64,000 nt of DNA from an uncultured Methanobrevibacter sp. (lineage in GTDB: Archaea > Methanobacteriota > Methanobacteria > Methanobacteriales > Methanobacteriaceae): NCBI RefSeq assembly GCF_900314615.1, contig NZ_OMWA01000011.1, positions 9,770 to 73,769 of the forward strand, written 5' to 3'. Positions 3,196 through 35,330 of the stretch are shown piece by piece. The position numbers and the translations under genes are program-made. The notes under the pieces were generated by a model, which worked only from the letters and a program-made list of their open reading frames with translations, had not been told where the DNA came from and made no database searches. Numbering within the stretch: the stretch's first letter is position 1; every line of letters starts with the position of its first letter.

Positions 3196-4803
3196 ATGAG
3201 TGATATTAGCTTATATAAAATTAATAATATTTCCAAATTGAAATCAAAATTAATAAAAGAGGGTTTTGAGAAAAAGAACAATACAAAGAAAGTCGAAATC
3301 GGCGAAGGAAAAGATAAAAAAGAATATTTGATGGAATTCTACTATGAACACGGCATGGACTTAAATGTGGTGTCTTGGCATAATTTTGCTGAAAATTTTG
3401 ATGTCACTCCTTCTGAAGTCCAGTCAAATCCACGTGCAGTGATATTGATTGAAAGAGATGAATCGTATTATGCCATATCATTTGGAACGGCTTACCATTA
3501 TGTGGAGCCGTTGTCTGATAAGCAGTGGGCATTCAATTTTGCAAAAAGACTAAATTATGACAAGATAAATCTGATGGCAACAACGATTCCACAATCTAAA
3601 TTGACCAAACAGATTAGTTCCTATAGAAACTATAATGAAACGGATATCAATGTTGGTGAGGCATTAAGTAAGATAACTGCATATATGGAACCGGACGATG
3701 AACTCATTGATGTTGGAGAGAAACTTCAGGTAGGCAATTCTCTAAAACTGAAACTTGAGAAGGATGACCTTGAAACTGTTGCAAAAACAATATCTTATAT
3801 TGAAGAGGTAATCTCAAAGGCTGATGTCCTGTGGGAAATTCCGCAGATAGTTGAAATTAAGGATGAAAAAGAACTTGAAAAACTTAATGCAAAGTTAAAA
3901 GAAGAGATATGCAAGTGGTCCGTTGAAAGACAAAAAAGCAATCTTCTAGACGTCAATAACTATGTGGTCTACAGCAATGATTTTAAAAATATTGATGATT
4001 TCGCAGAATTTCAACTAAAGTACAAAAAGAAGAATTCCAAAGAAAAGGCAATAGTGGAAAACTATGATGATTTAAGTATGGCTACAATACTAAAATTCAT
4101 CTCTTCAAATAATATTGCATCTGATGATGTTTTAGACATCAACATAATTTTTTCAAATGAAAACGAGAAAATCCAACGGACTTTGGATAAGATAATAATC
4201 TATGATTGCATTGATGAAAACTGTGTATATGAGTATGGAAAATGGAGCAGGTACAACCAGCATTATATTGATATGGTTGAAAAGGAGATTGCAACAATCC
4301 CTGCAAAATTCTGTCCGGAATACCGCTTTGAAAGTGATGAATATGATAGGTTCATAACTGACAGAAATGGCAGTAATAATAAGGAGTATAATGAAACAAC
4401 ATTCAATGACTATCTTGTCAAATGTCATGATTTTGTAAATTATGATAAAGAACTGAGGCGGAAAAAAGGTTATGCAGTTGAAATAATGGATTTGTATAAA
4501 GATGGTGTTGCTTATTCAGTCAAGAAAGGCAGTGGTTCACAAAAACTATCTGTTGTAGTTGACCAAAGTATCGAGGGAATGAGATTCCTCATAAAGGAAG
4601 ACACTAATTTTGCCAATAAAATCGAAACGGTTTGCATTTGGCTAATTTTAGACCGTAAAAAGGATATTCATGATGAAAATAATGTTGCAGACATTAACGA
4701 ACTAGATATGCTAATGTTAAAAACCAAACTGGTGATATGGGCTCAACAAATGAGATTATGGGGATATAAGCCCGTTATTCAAATAAATTATAAAAAAAGA
4801 TAA
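3196..4803 (+). CDS. DUF6119 / TIGR04141-like protein with C-terminal PD-(D/E)xK-like nuclease region
   Basis: RAVILIE..YYAISFGTAYH N-terminal pattern; C-terminal EIMDLY..SVKK..SQKLSVVVDQS resembles the TIGR04141 signature; 535 aa. Confidence 0.6.
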   Translation: MSDISLYKINNISKLKSKLIKEGFEKKNNTKKVEIGEGKDKKEYLMEFYYEHGMDLNVVSWHNFAENFDVTPSEVQSNPRAVILIERDESYYAISFGTAYHYVEPLSDKQWAFNFAKRLNYDKINLMATTIPQSKLTKQISSYRNYNETDINVGEALSKITAYMEPDDELIDVGEKLQVGNSLKLKLEKDDLETVAKTISYIEEVISKADVLWEIPQIVEIKDEKELEKLNAKLKEEICKWSVERQKSNLLDVNNYVVYSNDFKNIDDFAEFQLKYKKKNSKEKAIVENYDDLSMATILKFISSNNIASDDVLDINIIFSNENEKIQRTLDKIIIYDCIDENCVYEYGKWSRYNQHYIDMVEKEIATIPAKFCPEYRFESDEYDRFITDRNGSNNKEYNETTFNDYLVKCHDFVNYDKELRRKKGYAVEIMDLYKDGVAYSVKKGSGSQKLSVVVDQSIEGMRFLIKEDTNFANKIETVCIWLILDRKKDIHDENNVADINELDMLMLKTKLVIWAQQMRLWGYKPVIQINYKKR

Positions 4804-7468: not shown

Positions 7469-8740
7469 TTGAATTCAATCAATTTCAAAACAAATTCTTT
7501 AATAAAAAATTTTAAAAATACTATAAAAGCTCTTCATCATTGCAAATGTGATTCAAAAACTTATTTTAGGTATAAATCAAAATTAAATATAGATAAAAAT
7601 GTTGATATGCATATTAAGCAAATTATTTCTGAAATGATGAGTGAAGAAGTTATTGTGAACAATTTTTCAAAAAAATATATAATCACTAATGTCATATCTA
7701 TTTTAGAGGAAATTCACGATAAAAATGGATTTAACTTAAATAATAATGATTTCAAAAATTTATATTTAAATTTAATTCGAGATTTCGAAAATGAGATTAA
7801 CAATACAATTGAAAATGAATTTAAAGAATTTGAATTCATTTCGCATATAGATAATTTAAAATTATCTAGGGAAATTAAAATTGCTGATGTAATTTTATTT
7901 CCTTATGATTCATCAATTTCAGATTTAGCATATATAAATGATAATGAGTATGTTTCTGATGATTTTTTCAGAGATGATGAAGTCTATGCCAGAACCTGTG
8001 TATATGGTTCAAAAGATTATGCTATTAAAAAGTCAGAAGTAAAAATTAAAATGGCTTTAAATATTTTAAAATTTTTACTACCTGGTCATTTAACTAATTT
8101 TAATTTAGATGGGGAAACAGTTAAAAATGTTTTTAGAGACTATATCTTTCTTAATTCAAATGAATTATTTGGAGGGGGGGCACGAAAAGTCGGTGATTTT
8201 CACTTTTGTTGCGATATTGATGATGAGTTATTAAAAGGGATGTCTTTTAATTTAGAAATTTTGTCTTCATTATTTAAAAATAATAATCGATTTACTTTTG
8301 AAAATAATTTATTGTCTGCTATTTATTGGTTTGGTGAGGCAGTTTCTCAAGGCATGATGAAATATAGGGATGCAGATAATAAATATTCAACGGAATTAGA
8401 TAATTTTGAATATTTTAATGCTTATCCAAAATTGTTAAATCTTATTATTTCTTTAGAAACTGTTTTTATTTATGGTAATGAAGATAAATCTAAAAGTATT
8501 TCTTCAAAAGTTTCTGCATTAATTGCAAATCCAGGATATGAAGAATTTATTTCAGAGTTTCTTAAAGAAATATATATTAATAGATCTAAAATAGTACATT
8601 CAGGAATTGTATATATTTCCAAAGATGACTTAAATACTTTGGTTAATTATACAAGAGCAGCAATATTTAAGATTGCAGTTATTAACCATTTAAATAGGGA
8701 TAAAATTTCATATTTTAATAAAATATATGGTGTAATATGA
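7469..8740 (+). CDS. Apea-like HEPN domain protein
   Basis: C-terminal LIISLETVF..ISSKVSAL..LKEIYINRSKIVHSG with RxxxxH motif. Confidence 0.75.
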   Translation: MNSINFKTNSLIKNFKNTIKALHHCKCDSKTYFRYKSKLNIDKNVDMHIKQIISEMMSEEVIVNNFSKKYIITNVISILEEIHDKNGFNLNNNDFKNLYLNLIRDFENEINNTIENEFKEFEFISHIDNLKLSREIKIADVILFPYDSSISDLAYINDNEYVSDDFFRDDEVYARTCVYGSKDYAIKKSEVKIKMALNILKFLLPGHLTNFNLDGETVKNVFRDYIFLNSNELFGGGARKVGDFHFCCDIDDELLKGMSFNLEILSSLFKNNNRFTFENNLLSAIYWFGEAVSQGMMKYRDADNKYSTELDNFEYFNAYPKLLNLIISLETVFIYGNEDKSKSISSKVSALIANPGYEEFISEFLKEIYINRSKIVHSGIVYISKDDLNTLVNYTRAAIFKIAVINHLNRDKISYFNKIYGVI

Positions 8741-9591
8741 CTAATCCTAAAAAACAGCATTATGTTCCTCAGTTTTATTTAAGAAACTTTAAAGATGGGT
8801 CTTCTGATAATATAATTAATTGTTTTAATATTAAAACTAAAAAATATTACAAAGCATCTATTGATAAAGTCGCACAAAAGAAATATTTCTATCAATCTTC
8901 TAAAAACAATTTAGAATATCAATTATCTTTAATTGAAAAGGAATCTAGTAAATATATTAACAATTTGGTTGAAAATAAGAAATATAAATATTTAAATAAT
9001 TTAAATATTAGGGCAAATTTATCATATTTCATGTCACTGCAGTTTATTAGAACAAATGATAAACGAGAATGGATAAAGAATCATTCTTATGAATTAAAAG
9101 AGGAAATTTCACAAGAAATAAAAATTCCTCTAAAATTTCAAAAGTTATTTGATGAATTTCCTTCAGATGAACATGTGAAAAATTGGCATTTGGAATATAT
9201 TGAAAAATTTTCTTTGAAATTTTTCAAATATTTTTATTATAAAAAATGGATTTTAATTAAAAACAAGACTAATTTGAATTTTTGGACATCAGATAATCCT
9301 ATTGCAATTTGGAATCCTATAAATCCTCAAGGTTTATGCAGGAAATGCAGTTTTATTTTCTTTCCACTGAGTTCAAAATTATGCCTATGTCTGGCGGATC
9401 CTTTTTATTTTTCTAATTTGGACCAGAGTAGAACTTCAAGTGTTGGAACTAATATTTTAAAGGCAACATCCTTTAAATTTAAGGAAGAAGTTGATGTTAT
9501 TAATAATAATTTTCTGGAAGTTGATTCTTGTAATATGAATATTTTTTCAAAAGATTGTGATTTTGAAGTATTATTTAATAGGTGTCATTAA
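8737..9591 (+). CDS. DUF4238 domain protein
   Basis: N-terminal QHYVPQFYLRNF and internal FWTSDNP..FFPLSSKLCL; ATGA overlap with the HEPN gene. Confidence 0.85.
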   Translation: MTNPKKQHYVPQFYLRNFKDGSSDNIINCFNIKTKKYYKASIDKVAQKKYFYQSSKNNLEYQLSLIEKESSKYINNLVENKKYKYLNNLNIRANLSYFMSLQFIRTNDKREWIKNHSYELKEEISQEIKIPLKFQKLFDEFPSDEHVKNWHLEYIEKFSLKFFKYFYYKKWILIKNKTNLNFWTSDNPIAIWNPINPQGLCRKCSFIFFPLSSKLCLCLADPFYFSNLDQSRTSSVGTNILKATSFKFKEEVDVINNNFLEVDSCNMNIFSKDCDFEVLFNRCH

Positions 9592-13553: not shown

Positions 13554-14104
13554 AATATATGTATATCGATGAAAATTGTGAGTATGGTAACTTTTTAGAT
13601 GTTAATACTGGATTATCATGTATCTGGGATTTCTTTGAATTATTGAAATATGAGGCTATTCGTGAAGTTAAAATTCTGACTATCAATAATATTATTGGAA
13701 TGTTTTTATGAAATGGGATTTTAAGGAAACTAAAATGATTTTCTAAAGCTCATGAGACTTTCATAAGGAACATCAATGGAATCCTCGATGTACAGTAATA
13801 ATATAAATTCGTACAAATTATAGGGGTTTATAAATATTGGTGAATAACTATTTCAAAATGGGAAGCTATCACTTTGTTAAGAATAACTGCTTAACTAATA
13901 ATGATATAATAAATGGATAAATGGGTAGGAATAACAGCTGTGGATATATTATAAGTATTTTTTTTCAGTTTATAATAATTGTATTTATGTTTGATATTGT
14001 CAGTATTGTTTATTAGGAGCATTATTGGTTCAAAAAATATTTTAGTTATATTAATAAAACATATTTTTATATTAGAGAAATCAACTAATTTGATAGTGAT
14101 TATT

Positions 14105-16111
14105 ATGTATAATGATTCACCAATTAAGTATCGAAATCAGGATAAATTAAATCGGGTAAAATTTGCAAATTCGGTAGCCGAATCTATAATTAATTTGCCT
14201 GAACGGTCAGATAGTATTGTTATTGGATTGATGGGTGGTTGGGGCACTGGTAAATCCTCTTTGTTAAATTTAGTTGAAACTAAAGTTAAAGGTTATGCTA
14301 AAGTTTTAAGATTCAATCCCTGGAATTATTATTCTCAGCAAATGTTATTTTCTTCATTTTTTGATGAATTAATTGGTTGTTTGGATTTTGATAGTAAATT
14401 TTCTGCTTTATTTCAAAAGTATAAATATAAAATTATTGGTACTGGTGTTGAGCTAGTTAATACTATTCAACCGGGTGTAGGTTTACTTAATAATTTTGTC
14501 CCAGATTCAGAATATAAAACATTAAATGATATAAAAGATAAATTAAATGATATTTTTAAAAATCAACTTAAAACTGTTGTTATTATTGATGATATTGATA
14601 GATTAAATCCGGATGAAGTAAAACAAATATTTCAATTAGTTAAATCTTTAGCGGATTTTCCAAATATAATCTATATTTTGGCTTTTGATAAAAATTATGT
14701 AAATTATGCTTTAAAAGATTGGAATATTGAAGATGAGAAATATTCTCATACTGAAGATTTCATCGATAAAATTATTCAAGTTCCATTAACGATTCCTAAA
14801 TTTGGTGCTGAAGATTTTATTAACATATTCAAATACAAGTTTAAGAAAGTTTTAAATAATCATAATCCGGATATTGAAGATCTTAATATTGATAAATTAT
14901 ATCTAGACTTATCTCCTTTTCTTAAAAATATTCGTGACATTAATAGATTTTGCAATGCACTGGATTTTTATTTATATTCAGTAGATACTGAAATATGGAT
15001 TCACGATTTTGCATTAGTTACTGCATTACAGATTTTTGAAAAGGACATTTATGATAGCATTAAAAACAATAAAAATTTACTAACTGGTGATTTAGAAATT
15101 TTTGATGAAAAAATTGATTTAATTGATATTTTGGGAGGTAATTTAAAAAATTATTTAAATGTATTGTTTGATAATGATTTGAAATATAAAAATGCAGTTG
15201 AACAAATTTTATCTGACCTTTTCCCTAAAGTTAATTATATAATTAATGAATCTTCTCAAACCCCTAAATCTATAATTGATTTAAAAAAGAAGCATTGCGG
15301 AATAATGCAAAAAGAATATTTTGATTTATATTTCACATTTGACAATACTAACAGTTTATCTAAATCACGAATTGATTCTTTAATTTGTGCTGCTAATAAT
15401 GATAATATTAAAGAGCTAAAAACAAGTTTATTGATAATTAAGGAGATGAATTTGTTAAATTCATTAATTGATCAATTAGGTTATCATGTTGATAGTTTTG
15501 AGAATGTTGGGGTGAAAAATCTAATAAAATCATTTAATGATAATTATAATGAATTATTTGTAGATGAATCATTTAATTCCCAAAATACAAAGATTTCTAA
15601 TGCCATTAATTTAATATATTATTTAATAAAAGACAAAGAATTAGATGATAACGCTATTTTTGAATCGATTGACGAATCTGAAAATAACTATTTTAAAACT
15701 TACTTGATTTGGGAAATAACTAATGTTGTTTTGTTATCAGAAGAGATATCGTCTAAACTTAAAAAAATTATTTCTAGTTATTTATCAGATTATTTTGAGA
15801 AAACAGATTTTTCTGAAATTGAGCAAATTAGGTCAAATATTGCATTTTGGAAGAATTTTTCAGGATTTGAAGTTACCAACAAGTATATTAATGATTTAAA
15901 TGATGAAAATTTAATAATGCTTATTTCTGAATATGTGGAACATGATTTCTTTAAAGATGAGGACGTGATGAGGTACGAGTATATTGGAACTGTTGTTGAA
16001 TTGGATTCTGTTAAAAGGCGTTTTGATGAATTAAAGAATCTTGAAGGGGAATTTAATACAGAACAAATGAATACAGTAAATTTATTCGTTAATAATTTTC
16101 CGGATGATTGA
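14105..16111 (+). CDS. KAP family P-loop NTPase
   Basis: DKLNRVKFA, GLMGGWGTGKS Walker A, FNPW, VVIIDDIDRL Walker B, KIIQVP; start moved from TTG 13979 to ATG 14105 by comparison with the second KAP. Confidence 0.9.
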   Translation: MYNDSPIKYRNQDKLNRVKFANSVAESIINLPERSDSIVIGLMGGWGTGKSSLLNLVETKVKGYAKVLRFNPWNYYSQQMLFSSFFDELIGCLDFDSKFSALFQKYKYKIIGTGVELVNTIQPGVGLLNNFVPDSEYKTLNDIKDKLNDIFKNQLKTVVIIDDIDRLNPDEVKQIFQLVKSLADFPNIIYILAFDKNYVNYALKDWNIEDEKYSHTEDFIDKIIQVPLTIPKFGAEDFINIFKYKFKKVLNNHNPDIEDLNIDKLYLDLSPFLKNIRDINRFCNALDFYLYSVDTEIWIHDFALVTALQIFEKDIYDSIKNNKNLLTGDLEIFDEKIDLIDILGGNLKNYLNVLFDNDLKYKNAVEQILSDLFPKVNYIINESSQTPKSIIDLKKKHCGIMQKEYFDLYFTFDNTNSLSKSRIDSLICAANNDNIKELKTSLLIIKEMNLLNSLIDQLGYHVDSFENVGVKNLIKSFNDNYNELFVDESFNSQNTKISNAINLIYYLIKDKELDDNAIFESIDESENNYFKTYLIWEITNVVLLSEEISSKLKKIISSYLSDYFEKTDFSEIEQIRSNIAFWKNFSGFEVTNKYINDLNDENLIMLISEYVEHDFFKDEDVMRYEYIGTVVELDSVKRRFDELKNLEGEFNTEQMNTVNLFVNNFPDD

Positions 16112-23129: not shown

Positions 23130-24301
23130 GGCTTTGTAGAAATCTTCATTTTTATTGAATTTGAGCGGATCTATAGATGTTGTAAATTGTGTTTTTGAGT
23201 TTTGTTTCTTTGTTTGATAATTGTAGGCTTCTGCTTCTGTTTGTTCCGTTGAATATTCTTTTTATTACACTAAATATTGATTCTACATTATTTCTTCTTG
23301 AATATATGTCTTTGTTGAATGTATTTTTACTTTCTAGTCGATAATGTCCTGTTTTTGCTCGTGTTTTTAGTAGTATTTGATCTTGTGCTTTTGCTTCTTC
23401 GTTTATGCATTTTCTGATGGGTTCTGTGTCGTATGCTCTGTCTGCTAGGATGTATTTTGGATTATATTTTTTTATGTTTCTTATTGCTGCTATTGCGAAT
23501 CGTGTGTCGAATCTTGGGCCTCTTTGGGCTGCAAAATGAAGAATTAATCTTGAGTCTACGTCGATTGAAATATGGTTTTTTACGTAGCTTTTTCTTTCTT
23601 TTCGTCTTATTATTGCGTAATATTTGTCTGCGTAGTCATTGGTGAATCCGCTTCCATCTAAAGCAATTATATCGCCATTTATTTGGTGATTCATTAATAT
23701 TTGTTTGTTTAATTCTTTCAATATTGCTGTTGGTAGTCTTTGGAAGAATTTCTGGAGTGTTGTGTAATGTGGGACCTTTTTTAAGTGCAAATATTGTTGT
23801 ATTTTATCAGATAACTCCAATAAATCAATTATTTGTCTGTATGTGCTCCTGGTGTAGATTTTAACTGCCAAAAGTGTGAATAATGCAGGTTGTGTGAAGT
23901 CATGCTTTGAAAAATTGCTTGAATATTTATTTAACACGATTTTTGAGTATTTAAATGCATATTTAATGAATTTTAACAGTTTATTTGGTCTAATGTCATT
24001 GTTTATTTCTTTAATTTTTTTGAGTGCTGGTTTTTCAAAACCAAAATCCGAAAGATTTAATTGCTTTGAAAACAAACTATTAACTGGAGAATGAGTATTT
24101 TCGGGTTTCATATTAATATTTATTCTCCATTTTAGTATATATAATTATATATTGCTTATTTTTTCTAATCGATGTGAAATTTCAAGTGTAAACCTTATTA
24201 CTCAATAATACGATTATTTTATCAAATTTAAATCAAAAATAAGAATAAAAATAGATTTTAAAAAATTTATTGAAAAAATCAAATAGGATTTCTACAAAGC
24301 C
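23130..24301 (-). mobile_element. IS5-family insertion sequence, 1172 bp, 15-bp perfect TIRs
   Basis: ggctttgtagaaatc (23130-23144) and gatttctacaaagcc (24287-24301); encloses a DDE transposase; no perfect target duplication seen. Confidence 0.85.
23152..24111 (-). CDS. DDE transposase (IS5/IS4-like)
   Basis: IALDGSG, ILADRAYD and YSRRNNVESIFS supply the D-D-E triad; TTG start as listed. Confidence 0.9.
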   Translation of the reverse strand: MKPENTHSPVNSLFSKQLNLSDFGFEKPALKKIKEINNDIRPNKLLKFIKYAFKYSKIVLNKYSSNFSKHDFTQPALFTLLAVKIYTRSTYRQIIDLLELSDKIQQYLHLKKVPHYTTLQKFFQRLPTAILKELNKQILMNHQINGDIIALDGSGFTNDYADKYYAIIRRKERKSYVKNHISIDVDSRLILHFAAQRGPRFDTRFAIAAIRNIKKYNPKYILADRAYDTEPIRKCINEEAKAQDQILLKTRAKTGHYRLESKNTFNKDIYSRRNNVESIFSVIKRIFNGTNRSRSLQLSNKETKLKNTIYNIYRSAQIQ

Positions 24302-24396: not shown

Positions 24397-26565
24397 ATGA
24401 ATTTTTATAGTGAACGGCCTATTCTCAATAAGGATGATGATAAATTAAACAGATCTTTATTTGCGGAAATTCTCGCAGAATCTATTTTACATTATGATGG
24501 GGAAGACTGTTTAATAATTGGGTTAATTGGGAAATGGGGGTCTGGAAAAAGTTCAATAATTAATATGGCAGTAGATAGTATTCAATCAGAAAATTTAATT
24601 ATTATAAATTTTAATCCATGGTATTTTTCAACACAGGATAATTTATATCAGCAATTTTTTAATTTAATTGTAACTGAAATTGAAAAAAGAGAATTTGGAG
24701 ATAAATTTTGGGTTCAAAAGAAATGGTTTCAACTAAAAACACAATGGGATTATGCGTCACGAATTGAAAAAGGAAATAAGTCAATAATGCAATATGGTAA
24801 AGAAATTGTTTTAACGTTACGGGAGTTACAACATTCAGATATTATAAATAAATATTACAATCAAGTAAAATCTAATTCGGCAATCAATTTAAATGCTCCT
24901 GGCCTTGGTTATACATATAATTTCACTGATTCTAAAAAAGAGTATAATTCTATTTCTTATCTTAAAACTAAATGTAATGAATATTTTAAAAGTTTAGATT
25001 ATAAATTTCTAATTATCATCGATGATCTTGATAGGATGACTAAATTCGAAATTGAACAAACATTAATTTTAGTTAAATCTTTAGCAGATTTTGATGATTT
25101 TATTTATTTGTTAGCTTTTGATGATGAAATAGTATCGGAATCCTTGTCGAATGTTCCTGAAAAATTTCAAAAACTTTTTTTGGAAAAAATTATTCAAGTT
25201 TATCTCACTGTTCCTAAATTCAGTGAATCTCATTTAAATGGATTGATTTCTGATAGATTAGAGGATTTTTATAAAAATTTTGTCATTGATGAAAGTAATG
25301 ATGAAAATGTGGAAAATAATAGGGAATTGCCACAATCAATTCAAAAAGAATTTTTAGATATTTATTCTTATCTTAAAATGTTTTTTAAAAGTCCAAGAGA
25401 TTTATACAGATTTATTAATATTTTAAATTTTAATTTTTCAGTTTTTAAAGATGAAGTTAATAGGAAAGATTTTATACTAATTCTTGCAATCCAATTATTC
25501 GAACCAAATATTTATCATGAAATAAAAAATAATAAGGATTTATTCATTGTAAATTATGTAAATTTAACTAAATTGGAAAAAGAAGAGAATAAAGGTTACA
25601 TTGAGGATATTATTAAACTTAAGAGTAATAATTTATCTAAAAATATTGTTAGAGATATTTTATTTAAATTATTTCCTAAAATTGAAAGTTATTATAGGAA
25701 TATTGAGTATGGTTCTGAATGGGATGATTCATGGAAATATGAACGCAGAATTTGTTCAAAAAAATTTTTTGAGAAATATTTCACTTTGACATTGGAAACA
25801 GATGAAATAAGTATTGTTTCAATACAAAATTTATTAAGTGCGTCAGATTCCAATAGTATTTCGGATACTATTTTGGAATTTAATAATAATCATAAAACAA
25901 AAGATTTATTTGATTTGATGATTAATCGTATGGAAGACATTCCCAAAGAAAATGCCCAGTATTTCATTTCATCATTGATTGATATTGGGGATTTACTTGA
26001 AATACCATATAATATGTTTTTTGATAAAAGAATTTATTTATCCAGAATTCTTCATGATTTATTGAAAAAATATGATACTAAAGATGAAAGATTTGAAGTG
26101 TTGAAAAATGCAATTTCAAATTCTAAGATGAGTTTATATGTTGCAGTGGATTTATTAGCCGGTTTTGATTTTGATTATAATAAGTTCGACTATAAAAATG
26201 ATAAACCAAGTCCAGATGTTCTTATTTCAGAAGAACATTTGGAGGTTCTTGAAGAAATCATGAAAAATAAAATTAGGGAATGGGATGAAGATGGCAGATT
26301 ATGGGAAAATCCTAATCTAGAAGGAATTTTATACAGTTGGAAATCATGGGATAAAGAAGGTTATGTGATTAAACGTGTTGGGGAATATACTGCTGATGAT
26401 GAGAATTTATTAAAATTTTTAAATGGTTTTAAAAGTGTTGCAACAACTACTATGCATAGAAATTCTCCAAGTGATGTGGAGTTCAAACTCAATTTCAAAT
26501 CTTTGGAAAATTATTTTGATTTATATGAGTTAAATGACCGTCTTAAAAGAATTGGTAAGCAATAA
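24397..26565 (+). CDS. KAP family P-loop NTPase (second paralog)
   Basis: DKLNRSLFA, GKWGSGKS, FNPW, IIIDDLDRM, LEKIIQV. Confidence 0.9.
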   Translation: MNFYSERPILNKDDDKLNRSLFAEILAESILHYDGEDCLIIGLIGKWGSGKSSIINMAVDSIQSENLIIINFNPWYFSTQDNLYQQFFNLIVTEIEKREFGDKFWVQKKWFQLKTQWDYASRIEKGNKSIMQYGKEIVLTLRELQHSDIINKYYNQVKSNSAINLNAPGLGYTYNFTDSKKEYNSISYLKTKCNEYFKSLDYKFLIIIDDLDRMTKFEIEQTLILVKSLADFDDFIYLLAFDDEIVSESLSNVPEKFQKLFLEKIIQVYLTVPKFSESHLNGLISDRLEDFYKNFVIDESNDENVENNRELPQSIQKEFLDIYSYLKMFFKSPRDLYRFINILNFNFSVFKDEVNRKDFILILAIQLFEPNIYHEIKNNKDLFIVNYVNLTKLEKEENKGYIEDIIKLKSNNLSKNIVRDILFKLFPKIESYYRNIEYGSEWDDSWKYERRICSKKFFEKYFTLTLETDEISIVSIQNLLSASDSNSISDTILEFNNNHKTKDLFDLMINRMEDIPKENAQYFISSLIDIGDLLEIPYNMFFDKRIYLSRILHDLLKKYDTKDERFEVLKNAISNSKMSLYVAVDLLAGFDFDYNKFDYKNDKPSPDVLISEEHLEVLEEIMKNKIREWDEDGRLWENPNLEGILYSWKSWDKEGYVIKRVGEYTADDENLLKFLNGFKSVATTTMHRNSPSDVEFKLNFKSLENYFDLYELNDRLKRIGKQ

Positions 26566-26685: not shown

Positions 26686-28560
26686 ATGTTTAATATTAAG
26701 CATTTGAAAATACAAAATGAGTTGTATACAATAATAGAGTCTGAATTTGAAGACAGATTGAATGACTTATCAAGAGTAAACGTATTTGTAGGTGCAAATA
26801 ATTCTGGAAAAAGCAGGTTCATGAGATCTTTATTTTATATTGATAAAAATGCCAAATTGAATTTTTTACCTAATGATAAATGCTATGATTATTTTATGAA
26901 TCAATCTAAGATTTTCAAGGATTTTATCAAAAATCCTGGTGAAAAGCGTTTTTATAATACTGAACATCAAGCGTATTCAATTGTCAATACTAACTTGGGC
27001 GAAATAGGATATTTTACTGAATCAGAAACTCCTTGTTCATCGTTAATTCAAATTAGCAAAAATGCGAATAGGCATGGAGTGGGGCATGGCTCTCAATTGT
27101 ATTATTGTAAGGAAATTCTCAAAGAATACTTTGGAAAAATTAACTTTGATGATAATTTATTTAACTATAATTTTTATAAAATTTATATTCCTTCCTTAAG
27201 AGGTTTAATTCCATTAATTCCCAAAGATTTCATTCAAAATGATGATTTCTATAATGATTTTTATGCTGAAAGGATTAAACGAGATTATTTTGGCGAAAAA
27301 TCAGATATTTTAGTTAATGTAAATGATTTCTTATTAAGTGGAGATGTTAAAACTAGAAACGCAATTATAAGTGGTTTGCAGTTTTATGAATATGTGAAAA
27401 ATTATTTACTGGGAGATTTTGAGCAAAGGGAAATGATTCGCAAATATGAATCCTATTTGTCCGAAACGTTTTTTGAAAATGAAAATGTAGTGTTAATTCC
27501 AAAAGTAAATGATGATGTTTTAACAGTTAAAATTGGTGAGGAAGAACATAGAATTTATGATTTGGGGGAGGGCATTCAATCGATAATTTTAATAACTTTG
27601 CCGTTATTTTTATATTTGGAAAAATCTAAAGAAGAAAATACTACTGTTTTAGTATTCATTGAAGAGCCGGAAGTTAATCTTCATCCAATGTTGCAGAGGA
27701 TCCTGTTAAATACTTTATTGGGGCCATTATTTGAAGATTATCAGTTTTTCATCACGACACACTCAAACCATTTTATTGACAGGTTATTTGAAGACCAGAA
27801 TATCTCTATTTATTCATTTGATAAAAAAATAAATTATGCCGAAGGTTCTTCTGTCGAGTTTACTATTGAAAAAGTGGGTTTTGACCATTTACCTACTTTA
27901 AAACGATTAGGTGCGCTTCCATCATCTATTTTATCCCATAATTCCACTATTTTAGTTGAGGGCTCAACAGATAAGGAACATTATAGTTTATATTTTGAGT
28001 TATTTCAGCAACACCTTGAAAATAAAAAACCTAACTTTGAACGTTTTGTGGAGGGCATACATTTTTCATTTTTTAGAGGTGGAGGGTCAGAAGCAATTGA
28101 AAATGTAAAAGAATTTAAAGATATAGAAAAGGAAAGAATATTTTTAATTTTAGATAATGATTCAAAAGATGAAACAATTAAGAAAGAAAATTTATTTTCA
28201 GATATTGGTTATCAAAATTATTATATTTTGAATGTCAAAGAAGTTGAAAATTTAATCAATAAGGATGCTGTGATTAATATTCTTCAGAGGGTTTATAATA
28301 TTCCAGATAGAAATATGAATAAGAATTTCGATGAAAATGAGTATTATGCTACCAATGATTTCTATGATTTCATTGTCAAGACGGTTTTAAAAGGCAATAA
28401 ACCAGATAAGTTTCCCGAAAATAGATCTAAACTAAAAGATAAACTTAGCAGATATGAATCGAATTATACGAAAAGTTTTGATGATTTGACTGGAGAAGCT
28501 AAAAATGTTGCAATAGAAATTTACAAATTTATTAAAAAGAATAATCCAAAAAACTATTGA
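26686..28560 (+). CDS. OLD-family ABC ATPase-TOPRIM nuclease (GajA-like architecture)
   Basis: GANNSGKS Walker A, LGEGIQ signature, IEEPEVNLHP, TTHS, TOPRIM ILVEGSTD and LDND. Confidence 0.85.
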   Translation: MFNIKHLKIQNELYTIIESEFEDRLNDLSRVNVFVGANNSGKSRFMRSLFYIDKNAKLNFLPNDKCYDYFMNQSKIFKDFIKNPGEKRFYNTEHQAYSIVNTNLGEIGYFTESETPCSSLIQISKNANRHGVGHGSQLYYCKEILKEYFGKINFDDNLFNYNFYKIYIPSLRGLIPLIPKDFIQNDDFYNDFYAERIKRDYFGEKSDILVNVNDFLLSGDVKTRNAIISGLQFYEYVKNYLLGDFEQREMIRKYESYLSETFFENENVVLIPKVNDDVLTVKIGEEEHRIYDLGEGIQSIILITLPLFLYLEKSKEENTTVLVFIEEPEVNLHPMLQRILLNTLLGPLFEDYQFFITTHSNHFIDRLFEDQNISIYSFDKKINYAEGSSVEFTIEKVGFDHLPTLKRLGALPSSILSHNSTILVEGSTDKEHYSLYFELFQQHLENKKPNFERFVEGIHFSFFRGGGSEAIENVKEFKDIEKERIFLILDNDSKDETIKKENLFSDIGYQNYYILNVKEVENLINKDAVINILQRVYNIPDRNMNKNFDENEYYATNDFYDFIVKTVLKGNKPDKFPENRSKLKDKLSRYESNYTKSFDDLTGEAKNVAIEIYKFIKKNNPKNY

Positions 28561-31424: not shown

Positions 31425-31636
31425 TATTGCATCATGATTGAAAAGATCAAATCAAATAATGTTGTCCGGTCACTTCAAAAATTAAAATCAGAAGATAAAA
31501 CAATCTTTGAACCAATGTTGTTTAAAAAATACGATTATTTGATTTAAGGTTGTAACATTTCCAACCCTCAGGTTAATTTTTTTCATACATAATCTAAAAG
31601 AGGAAATTATCTCCATCTGCATTAATGAAGTGAATG

Positions 31637-31779
31637 TGGTTGATGATTAAGCTATTTTTTGGTTGATGATTAATTTTTTTAAATTCCTTAAACTGCTTGT
31701 TTTTTAATTATAAGCATTTTAATTCAAAATAAAAAATTGGTGTTGGTTGATGATTAAGGTTGATGATTAGTGTTTTGAA
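31637..31779. repeat. 143-bp direct repeat, copy 1 (downstream of fic), with four GGTTGATGATTA boxes
   Basis: Boxes at 31638, 31661, 31745, 31758; near-identical to 32841-32983. Confidence 0.95.
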
Positions 31780-31783
31780 AAAT

Positions 31784-32803
31784 TCATGCTAATGTATATT
31801 TTGTAGTTCTGCCTCTTCCAGTACTTTTTATTAACTTTTTATTTTTTAATTTTTGAATAATCTTATAACTGGCCTGCGGAGAGATATTCAACATCTTTTG
31901 GATATCTTTGTTCTGAATAATTTCTTTTTCTTCAAGAAGGTTTAATACTGAAATTTCATTTGGAGTCAATTCGATGGTTCTGTCATATCTTGATGTGATT
32001 TTGGACAGATTTAATACTTCTGATTTGACTTGATCAATTGAATATAATACTCCCTGACAAAAATATTCTAACCAGTTTGTTAAATCGTTGTTTTTGTCTG
32101 CACTGTTCAGCGCAGCAGTGTATGCCTGTCTGTCCTGATTGTAATATTCATCTAAAGTGAAATAGTTATTGATGTTAAATCTGTGGATGGATAAGATTAA
32201 TGTTGCCATTAGTCTGCTGGTACGGCCGTTCCCATCAATGAACGGGTGGATGCGCACTAATTCATAATGGAGAATTCCTGCGATGATGACGGGATACAGT
32301 TCAGCTGTTGAATTGTTCAGCCAGTCCAATAATTCGTCAATTAGGTAGGGTACTTTGTATGAGTCCGGGGGCACATAATTTACCTCTCCGGTATGGGGAT
32401 TGCCAATGACTACTGGAGTATCTCTGAATTTGCCTTCATATTTGCAATCTCTTAACAAGTCTTTTGTCAAATCCTTATGCACAGACAAAATTGTGTCTTT
32501 TGTAATGATTTCATCGGAATAGTCATTTAAATGATTCAATACATTGAAATAATTCAATACTTCCTGTTCTGCTTTTGTAGTTGGTTTTTGATTGTTATTA
32601 ATTAATGTTTTTACTTCATCTAAATTTAATGGATTTCCTTCAATTGATGTTGAATAGTGTGAAGACTTAATGAGGGCGTCCTGTTTTAATTGAGTATCGT
32701 ATGATGGGATTATTTTTGTATGGCTAATGACTTCTTTAGCTGAAGCGATTTTTGCAATATAATTAACGATTTTGTTTGTAAAGGTAAATTTTGGTTCATA
32801 CAT
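31784..32803 (-). CDS. Fic family protein (class II) with C-terminal winged HTH
   Basis: HPFIDGNGRTSR catalytic motif; STSIEGN inhibitory motif; C-terminal SPQASYKIIQKL..KSTGRGRTTKY. Confidence 0.95.
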   Translation of the reverse strand: MYEPKFTFTNKIVNYIAKIASAKEVISHTKIIPSYDTQLKQDALIKSSHYSTSIEGNPLNLDEVKTLINNNQKPTTKAEQEVLNYFNVLNHLNDYSDEIITKDTILSVHKDLTKDLLRDCKYEGKFRDTPVVIGNPHTGEVNYVPPDSYKVPYLIDELLDWLNNSTAELYPVIIAGILHYELVRIHPFIDGNGRTSRLMATLILSIHRFNINNYFTLDEYYNQDRQAYTAALNSADKNNDLTNWLEYFCQGVLYSIDQVKSEVLNLSKITSRYDRTIELTPNEISVLNLLEEKEIIQNKDIQKMLNISPQASYKIIQKLKNKKLIKSTGRGRTTKYTLA

Positions 32804-32840
32804 AATATCAGCTTATTTTTCTTAATTGTTACTATGTATA

Positions 32841-32983
32841 TGGTTGATGATTAAGTTATTTTTTGGTTGATGATTAATTTTTTTAAATTCTTTAAACTGC
32901 TTGTTTTTTAATTTTAAGCATTTTAATTCAAAATAAAAAATTGGTGTTGGTTGATGATTAAGGTTGATGATTAGTGTTTTGAA
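32841..32983. repeat. 143-bp direct repeat, copy 2 (upstream of fic)
   Basis: Boxes at 32842, 32865, 32949, 32962, same spacing as copy 1. Confidence 0.95.
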
Positions 32984-33106
32984 TTCACAGTTAAACTCGG
33001 CAATTGCATATGCAATTTTCAGGATTGCAAAACACCTAAAATTTCACTGCCCGATATGAAATAAGCTTAAACTTTTATATGCTAGGTTTGATAAACATTA
33101 CATACA

Positions 33107-33879: not shown

Positions 33880-34044
33880 TTATTTTGCAAGGGTTTTTTC
33901 GACGAAATCCTTGCTGACATTTAGTGTTTCAATTATTTCGTTAATTGTGCATCCGTGGTTTTTAAGGTTGATTATTATTTTTTCATTGTTTTCATTTATT
34001 TTGTCTTGTGCGTATTCTTGTGCGTATTCTTCTACATTTTTCAT
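33880..34044 (-). CDS. Stand-alone copy of the Rpn C-terminal module (cassette 3, 54 aa)
   Basis: gtaggtggaaacATG; MKNVEEYAQEYAQDKINENNEKIIINLKNHGCTINEIIETLNVSKDFVEKTLAK then TAA. Confidence 0.65.
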   Translation of the reverse strand: MKNVEEYAQEYAQDKINENNEKIIINLKNHGCTINEIIETLNVSKDFVEKTLAK

Positions 34045-34097
34045 GTTTCCACCTACTATGTTGGTTATTCTTTTTCTTAGCATGAATTTTGTTGATA

Positions 34098-34352
34098 TTA
34101 TTGGTAGTATTTGTTTTTGGTGAATTGTGTATTGTTCTTTGTGGATTTTGATGTTGGTTTTTTTTGGGAGTCAAGGGATTTCGCAAGTGTTTTTTCGACG
34201 AAATCCTTGCTGACATTTAGTGTTTCAATTATTTCGTTTATTGTGAATCCTTTGTTTTTAAGGTTGATTATTATTTTTTCAGTGTATTTATTTAGTTTGT
34301 CTTCTGCATAGTCTTGTGCATAGTCTTGTGCGTATTCTTCTACATTTTTCAT
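34098..34352 (-). CDS. Stand-alone copy of the Rpn C-terminal module (cassette 2), reading through into the linker (84 aa)
   Basis: Same SD/ATG context; three YAxD repeats; stop lost relative to the main gene. Confidence 0.55.
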   Translation of the reverse strand: MKNVEEYAQDYAQDYAEDKLNKYTEKIIINLKNKGFTINEIIETLNVSKDFVEKTLAKSLDSQKKPTSKSTKNNTQFTKNKYYQ

Positions 34353-34505
34353 GTTTCCACCTACTATGTTGGTTATTCTTTTTCTCAGCATGAATTTTGT
34401 TGATATTATTGGTAGTATTTGTTTTTGGTGAATTGTGTATTGTTCTTTGTGGATTTTGATGTTGGTTTTTTTTGGGAGTCAAGGGCAAGGGGTTTTTTTG
34501 TGATC

Positions 34506-35330
34506 TTATTTCGCAAGTGTTTTTTCGACGAAATCTCTGCTTCTTCCGGTTATTTTTAATATTTCTTCTATTGTGTGGCCGTGGTTTTTAAGGTTGATTA
34601 TTATTTTTTCATTGTTTTCATTAACTTTGTCTTTTGCATAGTCTTGTGCGTATTCTTCTACATTTTTCATGTTTCCACCTACTATGTTGGTTATTCTTTT
34701 TCTCAGCTTTTTGTCTTTGACGAATTTGTCGCATAGCATCAGGACGATTCCTTTGGCAAATTGTGCAATGTCATTTTTCAATCCTGATATATTGGTAATA
34801 AGTTCCGCTGAATCAAGAATGCTGGTTTCTATATCTTTTTCACTTTTCATGAAGCAAAATAAGCTTATCATGAGTAATTCCTTTTCAGTGAAGTGTTCAT
34901 CATGTTTTATTTTGGTGGTCATCTTATTTATAAGCTTGTCTTTGTCAATACTTTTTAAGGAATGGATATATATCGGAAAGCATGAATCCGGATTGATATT
35001 GTACCATTTTGTCTTTTCAAGTTCAACAGTACTTAAAACATGCACTTCAATCGGCTTTTTGGATTTGATTTTGACCTGGTCGATTATTGCGCTGTAGAAG
35101 CGAAATCTTCGTTTGTCGTTAACATCCACATAGCTGCTTTGAAATTCTAGAATTATTATTTTTTCTTCCAGCTCAAAAACAAGGTCCGGCTTGTACATTT
35201 TGGGATCTACAATTCCGTATTCTGTCTGATGCACTTCCACTATTTTTCCTTTGATATTCATGATTTCTATCAGTTCCTGCCCATATTTCTGGCCTTCAAT
35301 CTTAAAAATGGTGTCCTCGTGAAATTTCAT
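34506..35330 (-). CDS. Rpn/YhgA-like PD-(D/E)xK nuclease (putative transposase family)
   Basis: KPDLVFELEEKIIILEFQS (PD..ExQ), RFRFYSA; internal SD and ATG at 34670 defining a 54-aa C-terminal module. Confidence 0.75.
   Translation of the reverse strand: MKFHEDTIFKIEGQKYGQELIEIMNIKGKIVEVHQTEYGIVDPKMYKPDLVFELEEKIIILEFQSSYVDVNDKRRFRFYSAIIDQVKIKSKKPIEVHVLSTVELEKTKWYNINPDSCFPIYIHSLKSIDKDKLINKMTTKIKHDEHFTEKELLMISLFCFMKSEKDIETSILDSAELITNISGLKNDIAQFAKGIVLMLCDKFVKDKKLRKRITNIVGGNMKNVEEYAQDYAKDKVNENNEKIIINLKNHGHTIEEILKITGRSRDFVEKTLAK

Follow-up and report, generated by a model that had tools for sequence, protein, structure and literature searches.

The fic gene in a 64,000-nucleotide stretch of DNA from an uncultured Methanobrevibacter sp. 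(contig NZ_OMWA01000011.1; the whole stretch is called the window) lies between two direct copies of a 143-bp non-coding unit, and each unit carries four copies of a 12-bp box. We favor, with moderate confidence, an explanation in which the gene encodes an autoregulated Fic protein with a C-terminal winged helix-turn-helix (wHTH) and is placed between two operator units, the second of which would be a duplicate that has been kept. Recombination between the units would be a side effect of this arrangement. The same unit-fic-unit module occurs in other Methanobrevibacter and in Methanosphaera. The boxes are as conserved behind the gene as in front of it, and related loci carry the products of recombination between units.

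The repeats and their boxes

A repeat search of the window finds one two-copy family of direct repeats, at 31631-31779 and 32835-32983 (149 nt, 97% identity, 1204 nt from start to start). Pairwise alignment of 31637-31779 with 32841-32983 gives three substitutions, and the identity stops at ...GTGTTTTGAA. The exact box GGTTGATGATTA occurs eight times in the 64-kb window and never outside the two repeats. The boxes lie at offsets +1, +24, +108 and +121 in both copies (starts in Table 1), all in the same orientation, with periods of 23 nt and 13 nt. If one mismatch is allowed, 11 boxes are found against 0.85 expected, and 0 of 100 shuffled sequences reach 11. The repeat search, the alignment and the motif count thus bear out the first-pass annotation, which had described near-identical repeats with four boxes each at equal offsets. 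The one-mismatch boxes (GGTTGATTATTA at 33966, 34262 and 34592) lie within tandem C-terminal repeats of a 274-aa gene; they are probably chance matches that belong to the coding repeat.

The fic ATG is 37 nt from the upstream unit and the fic stop is 4 nt from the downstream unit, in agreement with the spacing first described. The proximal boxes of the upstream unit are 38-73 nt ahead of the ATG. Read in the sense of fic, this unit consists of two adjacent copies of TAATCATCAACC, a conserved AT-rich stretch of 72 nt with a T-run, and two boxes at the 23-nt period. The downstream unit read in the same sense has a T6/T4 run about 45 nt past the fic stop. The arrangement is identical in nine independent metagenome assemblies of the same species; therefore, it is not an assembly artefact. 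The repeat search finds no inverted repeat inside the 143-bp unit. Folding of the unit as a single strand gives no significant structure (z-scores of -1.5 and -2.0) and no long stem. The Rfam and tRNA scans of the window gave no matches.

The 12-mer around the fic start, TTCATACATAAT, is found again at 31582-31593, where it opens only MYEKN-stop, as the first-pass annotation had noticed. This relic reads ATG TAT GAA AAA AAT TAA on the minus strand, and 15 of 17 positions are alike between 31577-31593 and 32790-32806. It has a species-specific TAT codon in common with the real fic start. The 43 nt that separate the relic from the downstream unit (31577-31636 region) do not resemble the genuine spacer of 37 nt. 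A recent duplication would not explain both this dissimilarity and the TAT codon, and nor would simple decay.

Conservation of the boxes in both copies

Pairwise identity was computed across 16 non-redundant modules as the measure of conservation. The boxes reach 96.0% in the upstream copy and 96.1% in the downstream copy, which is the level of codon position 2 of fic (95.5%; position 1, 89%; position 3, 72%). The rest of the unit is 76-77% identical and the outer flanks about 40%. Along the unit, conservation follows the same course in the upstream and downstream copies. Within the species of the window, the boxes are invariant and the non-box sites are variable. Since the box identity matches that of codon position 2, the downstream boxes are kept by selection and are not merely decaying.

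The 37-nt spacer between the upstream unit and fic has a mean identity of 0.80, with many positions at 80-99%, and is conserved at the upstream copy only. The matching stretch past the downstream unit is about 35-40% identical (mean 0.375; per-column agreement mostly 30-50%). The spacer, whose consensus has a TATA-like ATATATTATAA, is a candidate core promoter, short 5' untranslated region and ribosome-binding site. A spacer conserved at the upstream copy only fits a single promoter and a second, promoter-less operator set. A scan for sigma-70 promoters and terminators gave nothing above shuffled sequence, but this model is bacterial and irrelevant for an archaeon.

Spread of the module

The first-pass annotation had allowed that the unit might be a one-off duplication unique to this locus. 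A search for the box and the unit in related genomes instead shows a widespread module and single-unit alleles. The adjacent double box is present in 22 stretches of contigs from one genome per species and in 36 stretches of metagenome contigs, nearly all labelled Methanobrevibacter, Methanosphaera or Methanobacteriaceae. A small number of contigs with a bacterial bin assignment bear the same archaeal module or flanks and are presumably mis-binned. Of the units, 40 lie upstream and 39 downstream of fic, 1 separates two fic genes, 22 are solo, and contig ends truncate 6. Every complete fic gene that has 200 nt or more of flank (33 of 33) lies between two units, including loci that were found by protein rather than by box pattern (L068-L074). 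The window sequence is present in bovine, goat and sheep gut metagenomes, and its sequence relatives are named Methanobrevibacter. Beyond the block 31621-32987, different species have unrelated flanks. Homologous modules are often flanked by defence islands with DrmE, TIR, AbiJ, DpnII and SLFN-type genes.

Some units also have an outer flank in common. This flank of at least about 80 nt (TGTGAAAAAATTT...GGTAAGTA...) lies beyond upstream or solo units and forms the right flank of 28 units; the window is without it. It abuts a C-terminal fragment of a transposase of insertion sequence (IS) family IS630 (NCBIfam, 3.2e-8) at L048 11394-11630 and L011 2939-3175, and a piece of it is on the opposite side of a unit in L003. 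A diverged unit (78%, four intact boxes) with no fic is found at 617-749 of L005, a 71.5-kb contig binned as Alistipes finegoldii, with a phage-type DNA polymerase (phrog_405, 9e-60) about 6.5 kb away. The carrier of this unit may be a virus or a mis-binned element.

The Fic protein

The Fic protein contains the catalytic motif HxFx(D/E)GNGRxxR (HPFIDGNGRTSR, residues 186-197). The inhibitory (S/T)xxxE(G/N) motif is present as STSIEGN (residues 51-57), N-terminal to the Fic core in the same chain, and is invariant across all aligned clades. Pfam gives Fic at 6.4e-22 and HTH_24 at 2.3e-5 (residues 281-326), and Rrf2 and MarR profiles match residues 277-339. The C-terminal region from about 277 to 339 is a MarR-type winged helix, and the last 76 aa match structures of the MarR regulators ZitR and AdcR at about 1e-3. 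The translation and Pfam therefore confirm the intact Fic motif, the STSIEGN helix and the C-terminal wHTH of the first-pass annotation. The protein has the architecture of a class II Fic AMPylase with a C-terminal wHTH. Structures in the PDB that match are 4rgl (1.6e-24) and CccR (7XUX, 9.1e-16).

The SoFic model of PADLOC matches residues 18-336 at 6.9e-59. The protein seems to be a distant SoFic-like relative and not a SoFic equivalog, because it scores far under the NCBIfam cut-off for SoFic. The gene probably encodes a SoFic-like toxin or defence AMPylase of rumen Methanobrevibacter, an assignment that we hold jointly with the explanation as a whole and with the same confidence. No small antitoxin open reading frame (ORF), of the kind of AS1 in E. 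coli, is found 3' of fic, where there is just the five-codon relic. Contigs from runs labelled RNA span fic at low depth (2-9) and with graph breaks.

Related clades and the protein that probably binds the boxes

Two further Fic-wHTH clades have related boxes beside the gene. In a sister clade (about 55% identity), boxes of the form TTAATCATAAAGT are arranged 3+2 upstream of fic with a 23-nt period, and the clusters are about 85-86 nt apart. The layout is the same as here, with a distal cluster followed by a proximal pair. This clade has one fixed context, eRF1-fic-DUF655. The Methanoregula clade (40% identity) belongs to another archaeal order and is rich in guanine and cytosine (GC). It has 3-4 perfect tandem copies of TGGTTGTCGATT (box also written GGTTGTCGATT) 44-65 nt past the fic stop, in at least two different neighbourhoods (Table 1). 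This box is two mismatches from the window box and in the opposite orientation. Many members of the Methanoregula clade are on contigs of 1.2-1.5 kb. The predicted recognition helices (NISPQASYKIIQKL, NVSSQSGYNYLNSL and GISRQAAGKELAGM) vary by clade in step with the boxes.

The boxes are most likely operators for the wHTH of Fic itself, because in both copies their conservation equals that of codon position 2, because related Fic-wHTH clades have related boxes beside the gene, and because CccR and SoFic bind their own promoters, the CccR half-site also having TAATCAT. The suggestion of the first-pass annotation that the boxes are Fic operators is thus supported by inference.

A different set of repeats was seen at L078 1724-1813, where three palindromic TAAC(C/T)TTTGGTTAC repeats with 34-35 nt spacing lie ahead of an ArsR/HTH_20 gene. 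This gene adjoins the most divergent Methanobacteriales-type Fic (P0121). The palindromes are presumably the operator of the ArsR/HTH_20 regulator itself.

Recombination between the units

The products of recombination between units can be read from loci with common flanks. In L013, L029 and L049, a unit-fic-unit module lies between a left and a right flank. These same flanks enclose just one unit in L022, in L006 and in a solo locus that is frequent, and the solo unit in L022 and L006 is a chimera with a downstream-type left part and an upstream-type right part. Such chimeras are the expected outcome of a crossover between the copies or, in the reverse direction, the integration of a circle. 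L032 carries a true tandem, (unit-spacer-fic)x2 with the order fic-unit-fic-unit, in one contig and with two distinguishable copies. In L003, a third unit lies past a small insert of two genes (unit-fic-unit-two genes-unit).

The insert itself (L003 1632-3004; L013 935-1528) encodes a 65-aa protein and a 197-aa P-loop nucleoside triphosphatase (NTPase), with the genes overlapping like a toxin-antitoxin pair. In L003 it separates the second unit from the third, and in L013, L029 and L049 it is beside the module.

The two units of a locus have a mean identity of 0.90, compared with 0.84 between loci, and the pair in the window is the most alike (0.98). In other strains of the species (L066/L067) the upstream unit is more divergent, and the upstream unit of the window looks converted. 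Gene conversion between the copies therefore seems to occur. Upstream units cluster with the upstream units of relatives and downstream units with downstream units. Because the units group by position among relatives, the pairs are old and not remade at each transfer. AAACAT relics analogous to the fic start are found beyond downstream or solo units in L003, L013, L022, L006 and L004. Such relics point to a tandem of unit-spacer-fic, its second gene since truncated, as the probable source of the downstream copy.

Comparison between loci shows the direct repeats to be substrates of ordinary homologous recombination, with deletion of fic, tandem amplification and conversion. The chimeric single-unit alleles and the tandem in related genomes support the loss or amplification of the gene by recombination that the first-pass annotation had proposed. 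A search for an empty-site allele at the exact locus of the window, by way of the neighbouring 236-aa protein, found none (9 of 9 places are occupied). The read-run data are assembled contigs (Logan) that break inside the unit and leave the junctions unphased. Contigs of about 1.2 kb with Fic homologues were considered as circles and discounted, as assemblers yield such pieces at repeated units.

Proposed explanation

The 143-bp unit would be an operator region in which boxes of 12-13 bp (TTAATCATCAACC when read with the gene) form two clusters 84 bp from each other. The boxes would be bound by the wHTH of the Fic dimer, and this binding may repress a promoter that lies within the proximal box pair or directly downstream of it. 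In the Methanobrevibacter and Methanosphaera clade, the whole unit would have been duplicated directly behind fic from a tandem in which the second gene was lost. The downstream copy would then have been retained with intact boxes, so that two operator clusters flank the gene. It is possible that the two clusters cooperate through a DNA loop over 1.2 kb, that they insulate a toxic gene from read-through amid the changing surroundings of a defence island, or both. Recombination between the units would produce a single chimeric unit, a tandem or converted copies as a side effect.

Several observations weigh against this explanation. The protein scores 66 bits with the NCBIfam SoFic equivalog model, compared with a cut-off of 550. 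The family can do without the downstream unit, since the sister clade has none. Only three clades underlie the match of box with recognition helix. Direct boxes with 23-nt and 13-nt periods differ from the inverted pair of CccR, and the geometry of a symmetric dimer does not explain them. Finally, solo units have intact boxes and no adjacent fic; these may be either young or bound by a Fic encoded elsewhere or by another factor.

Alternative explanations

The downstream copy could be a functionless leftover of a tandem duplication that is short, is refreshed by conversion and has no effect other than to make fic unstable. The fic-start relics beyond downstream units, the existing tandem array, the evident conversion between copies and the sister clade without a downstream copy agree with such an origin. 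However, conversion alone would even out whole tracts instead of sparing just the boxes, and the non-box parts drift at about the rate of third codon positions. The downstream boxes are 96% identical across the 16 lineages although the copies within a locus differ by 6-16% elsewhere. The downstream copy is also present in every complete module in two genera, and the Methanoregula clade evolved an unrelated box array downstream of its gene. A functionless downstream copy is therefore unlikely.

Another possibility is that the module is a self-contained mobile cassette. Recombination between the units, maybe synapsed by a box-binding protein, would free a 1.2-kb circle with fic and one unit, and the circle would re-enter other units or new sites. 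The repeats would then exist for mobility, like att sites or long terminal repeats (LTRs). The module has unrelated flanks across species, with a shared block that stops about 20 nt outside each unit, and its solo chimeric units and tandem array are expected footprints of such a cassette. The sister clade without a downstream repeat has one fixed housekeeping context. The Fic proteins of Methanobrevibacter and Methanosphaera are about 80% identical and the non-coding units 82-84%, which suggests horizontal transfer of the module between the two genera. An identical Fic protein is also found with three flank combinations (A/A, B/A, B/B), but this pattern is equally expected if the defence genes nearby come and go while the module serves as a homologous anchor. 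It is more simply explained by defence-gene turnover around the anchor than by a moving module. Many homologues are on contigs of 1125-1240 bp, but period-sized contigs are the normal result of de Bruijn breakage in repeated units. The module encodes Fic only, with no recombinase, transposase or Rep. Target duplications, terminal inverted repeats and a conserved target were not seen; the 33 aligned unit junctions and identical modules in different flanks have neither inverted repeats nor duplications. The unit pairs group by position and are only 84-94% identical within most loci, which indicates that they are old, and 9 of 9 close relatives hold the module at the same site. The searches for the unit in viral contigs, PLSDB and phage genomes gave no matches. 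A mobile cassette is rather unlikely on these grounds.

A stronger form of the same idea is an autonomous defence cassette of gut methanogens, in which a box-bound Fic-wHTH would synapse the units and promote excision of the 1.2-kb circle and its re-insertion at units. This is improbable. If it were true, the DNA-binding tail of a toxin would double as the specificity factor of a recombinase-free or host-recombinase-driven exchange between Methanobrevibacter and Methanosphaera.

Known classes of mobile or recombination site were also considered. A transposable element (IS, miniature inverted-repeat element or composite) finds no support, with no terminal inverted repeat, no target duplication and a module that encodes Fic only. 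An integron attC site is not supported either, with no hairpin and no integrase; the only transposase ORF is 7.5 kb away (Table 1). Direct boxes in multiple contexts do not fit the motifs of dif/Xer or origin-recognition-box (ORB) sites.

The boxes might also be bound by another host or viral factor, such as a regulator or a chromatin or replication protein, and serve as a regulatory input, for example in sensing infection. The direct-repeat geometry is unlike the inverted CccR site, and the solo units hold intact boxes without an adjacent fic. Against such a factor, the Fic-wHTH gene is the only constant neighbour of the boxes in three clades and two archaeal orders. No boxes are found elsewhere in the 64-kb window or in the flanks of about 10 kb at other loci, and the homologues CccR and SoFic bind their own upstream DNA. 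Binding by another factor is quite unlikely.

An iteron-type origin or integrated mini-replicon with the wHTH protein as initiator is very improbable: four direct 12-bp repeats do flank an AT-rich stretch of 72 nt, but the Fic-wHTH has no Rep, primase or helicase domain, the plasmid, phage and viral collections give no matches, the units are chromosomal and single or paired, and the sister clade has the same layout upstream of a gene whose housekeeping context is fixed, as suits a promoter region. The iteron-like or dedicated recombination site of the first-pass annotation is therefore not borne out, as no Rep, integrase or transposase and no terminal inverted repeat, target duplication or hairpin was found.

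Genomic surroundings

The coordinates of the features are collected in Table 1. A low-GC island occupies about 3 to 35 kb of the window; between about 3000 and 30000 it has 20-28% GC, genes on the same strand and matches to defence-type proteins. The gene content of the island left of fic varies between strains (L061, L064). The 274-aa gene (34506-35330, minus strand) has only a weak CoiA-nuclease-like match in Pfam and none in NCBIfam. Its last 60-70 codons recur behind it as two partial copies in tandem (ORFs at 34098-34391 and 33880-34083, minus strand). These repeats of about 300-330 bp are 85-98% identical, and their copy number varies among strains of the same species (L059-L067).

Table 1. 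Coordinates of the fic module, of island genes in the window and of Methanoregula-clade box arrays (the last in positions of the named loci)
Feature	Positions	Strand	Remarks
Upstream unit	32841..32983	-	Boxes (+ strand) 32842-32853, 32865-32876, 32949-32960, 32962-32973
Spacer, unit to fic ATG	32804..32840	-	37 nt; conserved at upstream copy only
fic	31784..32803	-	339-aa ORF
Downstream unit	31637..31779	-	Boxes 31638-31649, 31661-31672, 31745-31756, 31758-31769
fic-start relic ATTATGTATGAAAAAAA	31577..31593	-	MYEKN-stop, 43 nt beyond downstream unit
DUF6119	3196-4803		
DUF4238	8737-9591		
PifA-like KAP NTPases, two	13979-16111; 24397-26565		
DDE transposase	23152-24111	-	
Old/AriA/NsnB-like ATPase	26686-28560		
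Methanoregula box arrays	L081 4117-4152; L083 4096-4139; L085 1881-1915		

Significance and comparison with known systems

The Fic-wHTH proteins, among them SoFic and CccR, have lately been recognised as toxins or defence proteins that bind their own promoters. To our knowledge, the DNA sites have been experimentally defined for one member only. The present analysis predicts the operator TTAATCATCAACC for an archaeal clade, with variants in two further clades. We know of no earlier description, in the Fic-wHTH family, of a complete operator unit that is repeated behind the gene and under selection. If both sets of units cooperate, the module would be a compact case of a toxin gene enclosed by the sites of its own repressor, and the enclosure may be what allows such a harmful gene to work in defence islands that never stop changing. 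A further consequence of the repeats is that fic is unstable, as loss, amplification and conversion across genomes show; rumen methanogens thereby have a simple means of varying a defence gene in presence/absence and dosage.

The closest characterized relative in these respects is CccR of Yersinia pseudotuberculosis, a toxin with a Fic domain plus an HTH at the C terminus that represses its own promoter (PMC9755527). It binds as a dimer to 10-bp sites in that promoter, with the footprint AGATAATCAT-N26-ATGATAATCT (PMC9755527). The two proteins have the same two domains, with a homologous Fic domain (PDB 7XUX, E 9.1e-16), and the half-site AGATAATCAT has the TAATCAT core in common with the box TTAATCATCAACC. 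The CccR sites form a single inverted pair, spaced 26 bp apart and found only upstream, whereas each unit here has four direct boxes and a second full unit stands behind the gene; no inverted-repeat site of the CccR type for a symmetric dimer is present. CccR is also a secreted effector of the type VI secretion system, whereas the gene here is archaeal, lies in a defence island and encodes a protein whose DNA binding is predicted.

SoFic is a toxic dimer that requires its C-terminal domain for toxicity and binds the first 100 bp upstream of its own ATG (PMC12249575; bioRxiv 10.64898/2026.07.09.737422). The S. oneidensis protein, as a single-gene anti-phage system, resembles the module in its N-terminal inhibitory motif, Fic motif, wHTH and defence-gene neighbours. 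The module differs in having a second operator unit where E. coli has the small antitoxin ORF AS1.

Recombination between flanking direct repeats is known from solo-LTR formation and from IS26-type translocatable units. As in these, a gene lies between direct repeats, and single chimeric alleles, tandems and conversion are seen. Unlike them, the repeats here are non-coding, belong to no known element and come without a transposase, a reverse transcriptase or target duplications; the pairs are old and positionally orthologous. Integron cassettes are similar in that a promoter-less-looking gene is bounded by repeated sites, as in the unit-fic-unit-two small genes-unit order of L003. They differ in that the units here are near-identical and at most three per array, with no attC-like imperfect palindrome and no integrase.

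Operators that flank a gene and cooperate by DNA looping are known from OL and OR around cI-rex of phage lambda and from OE and OI of gal. The module is similar in having repeated repressor sites on both sides of the regulated gene, 1.2 kb apart. Here, however, the clusters are a direct duplication of 143 bp, the regulator is fused to the toxin, and looping would be by analogy. The module thus seems to belong to a known kind, the autoregulated Fic-wHTH toxin or defence protein, and its new element is a whole operator unit duplicated behind fic.

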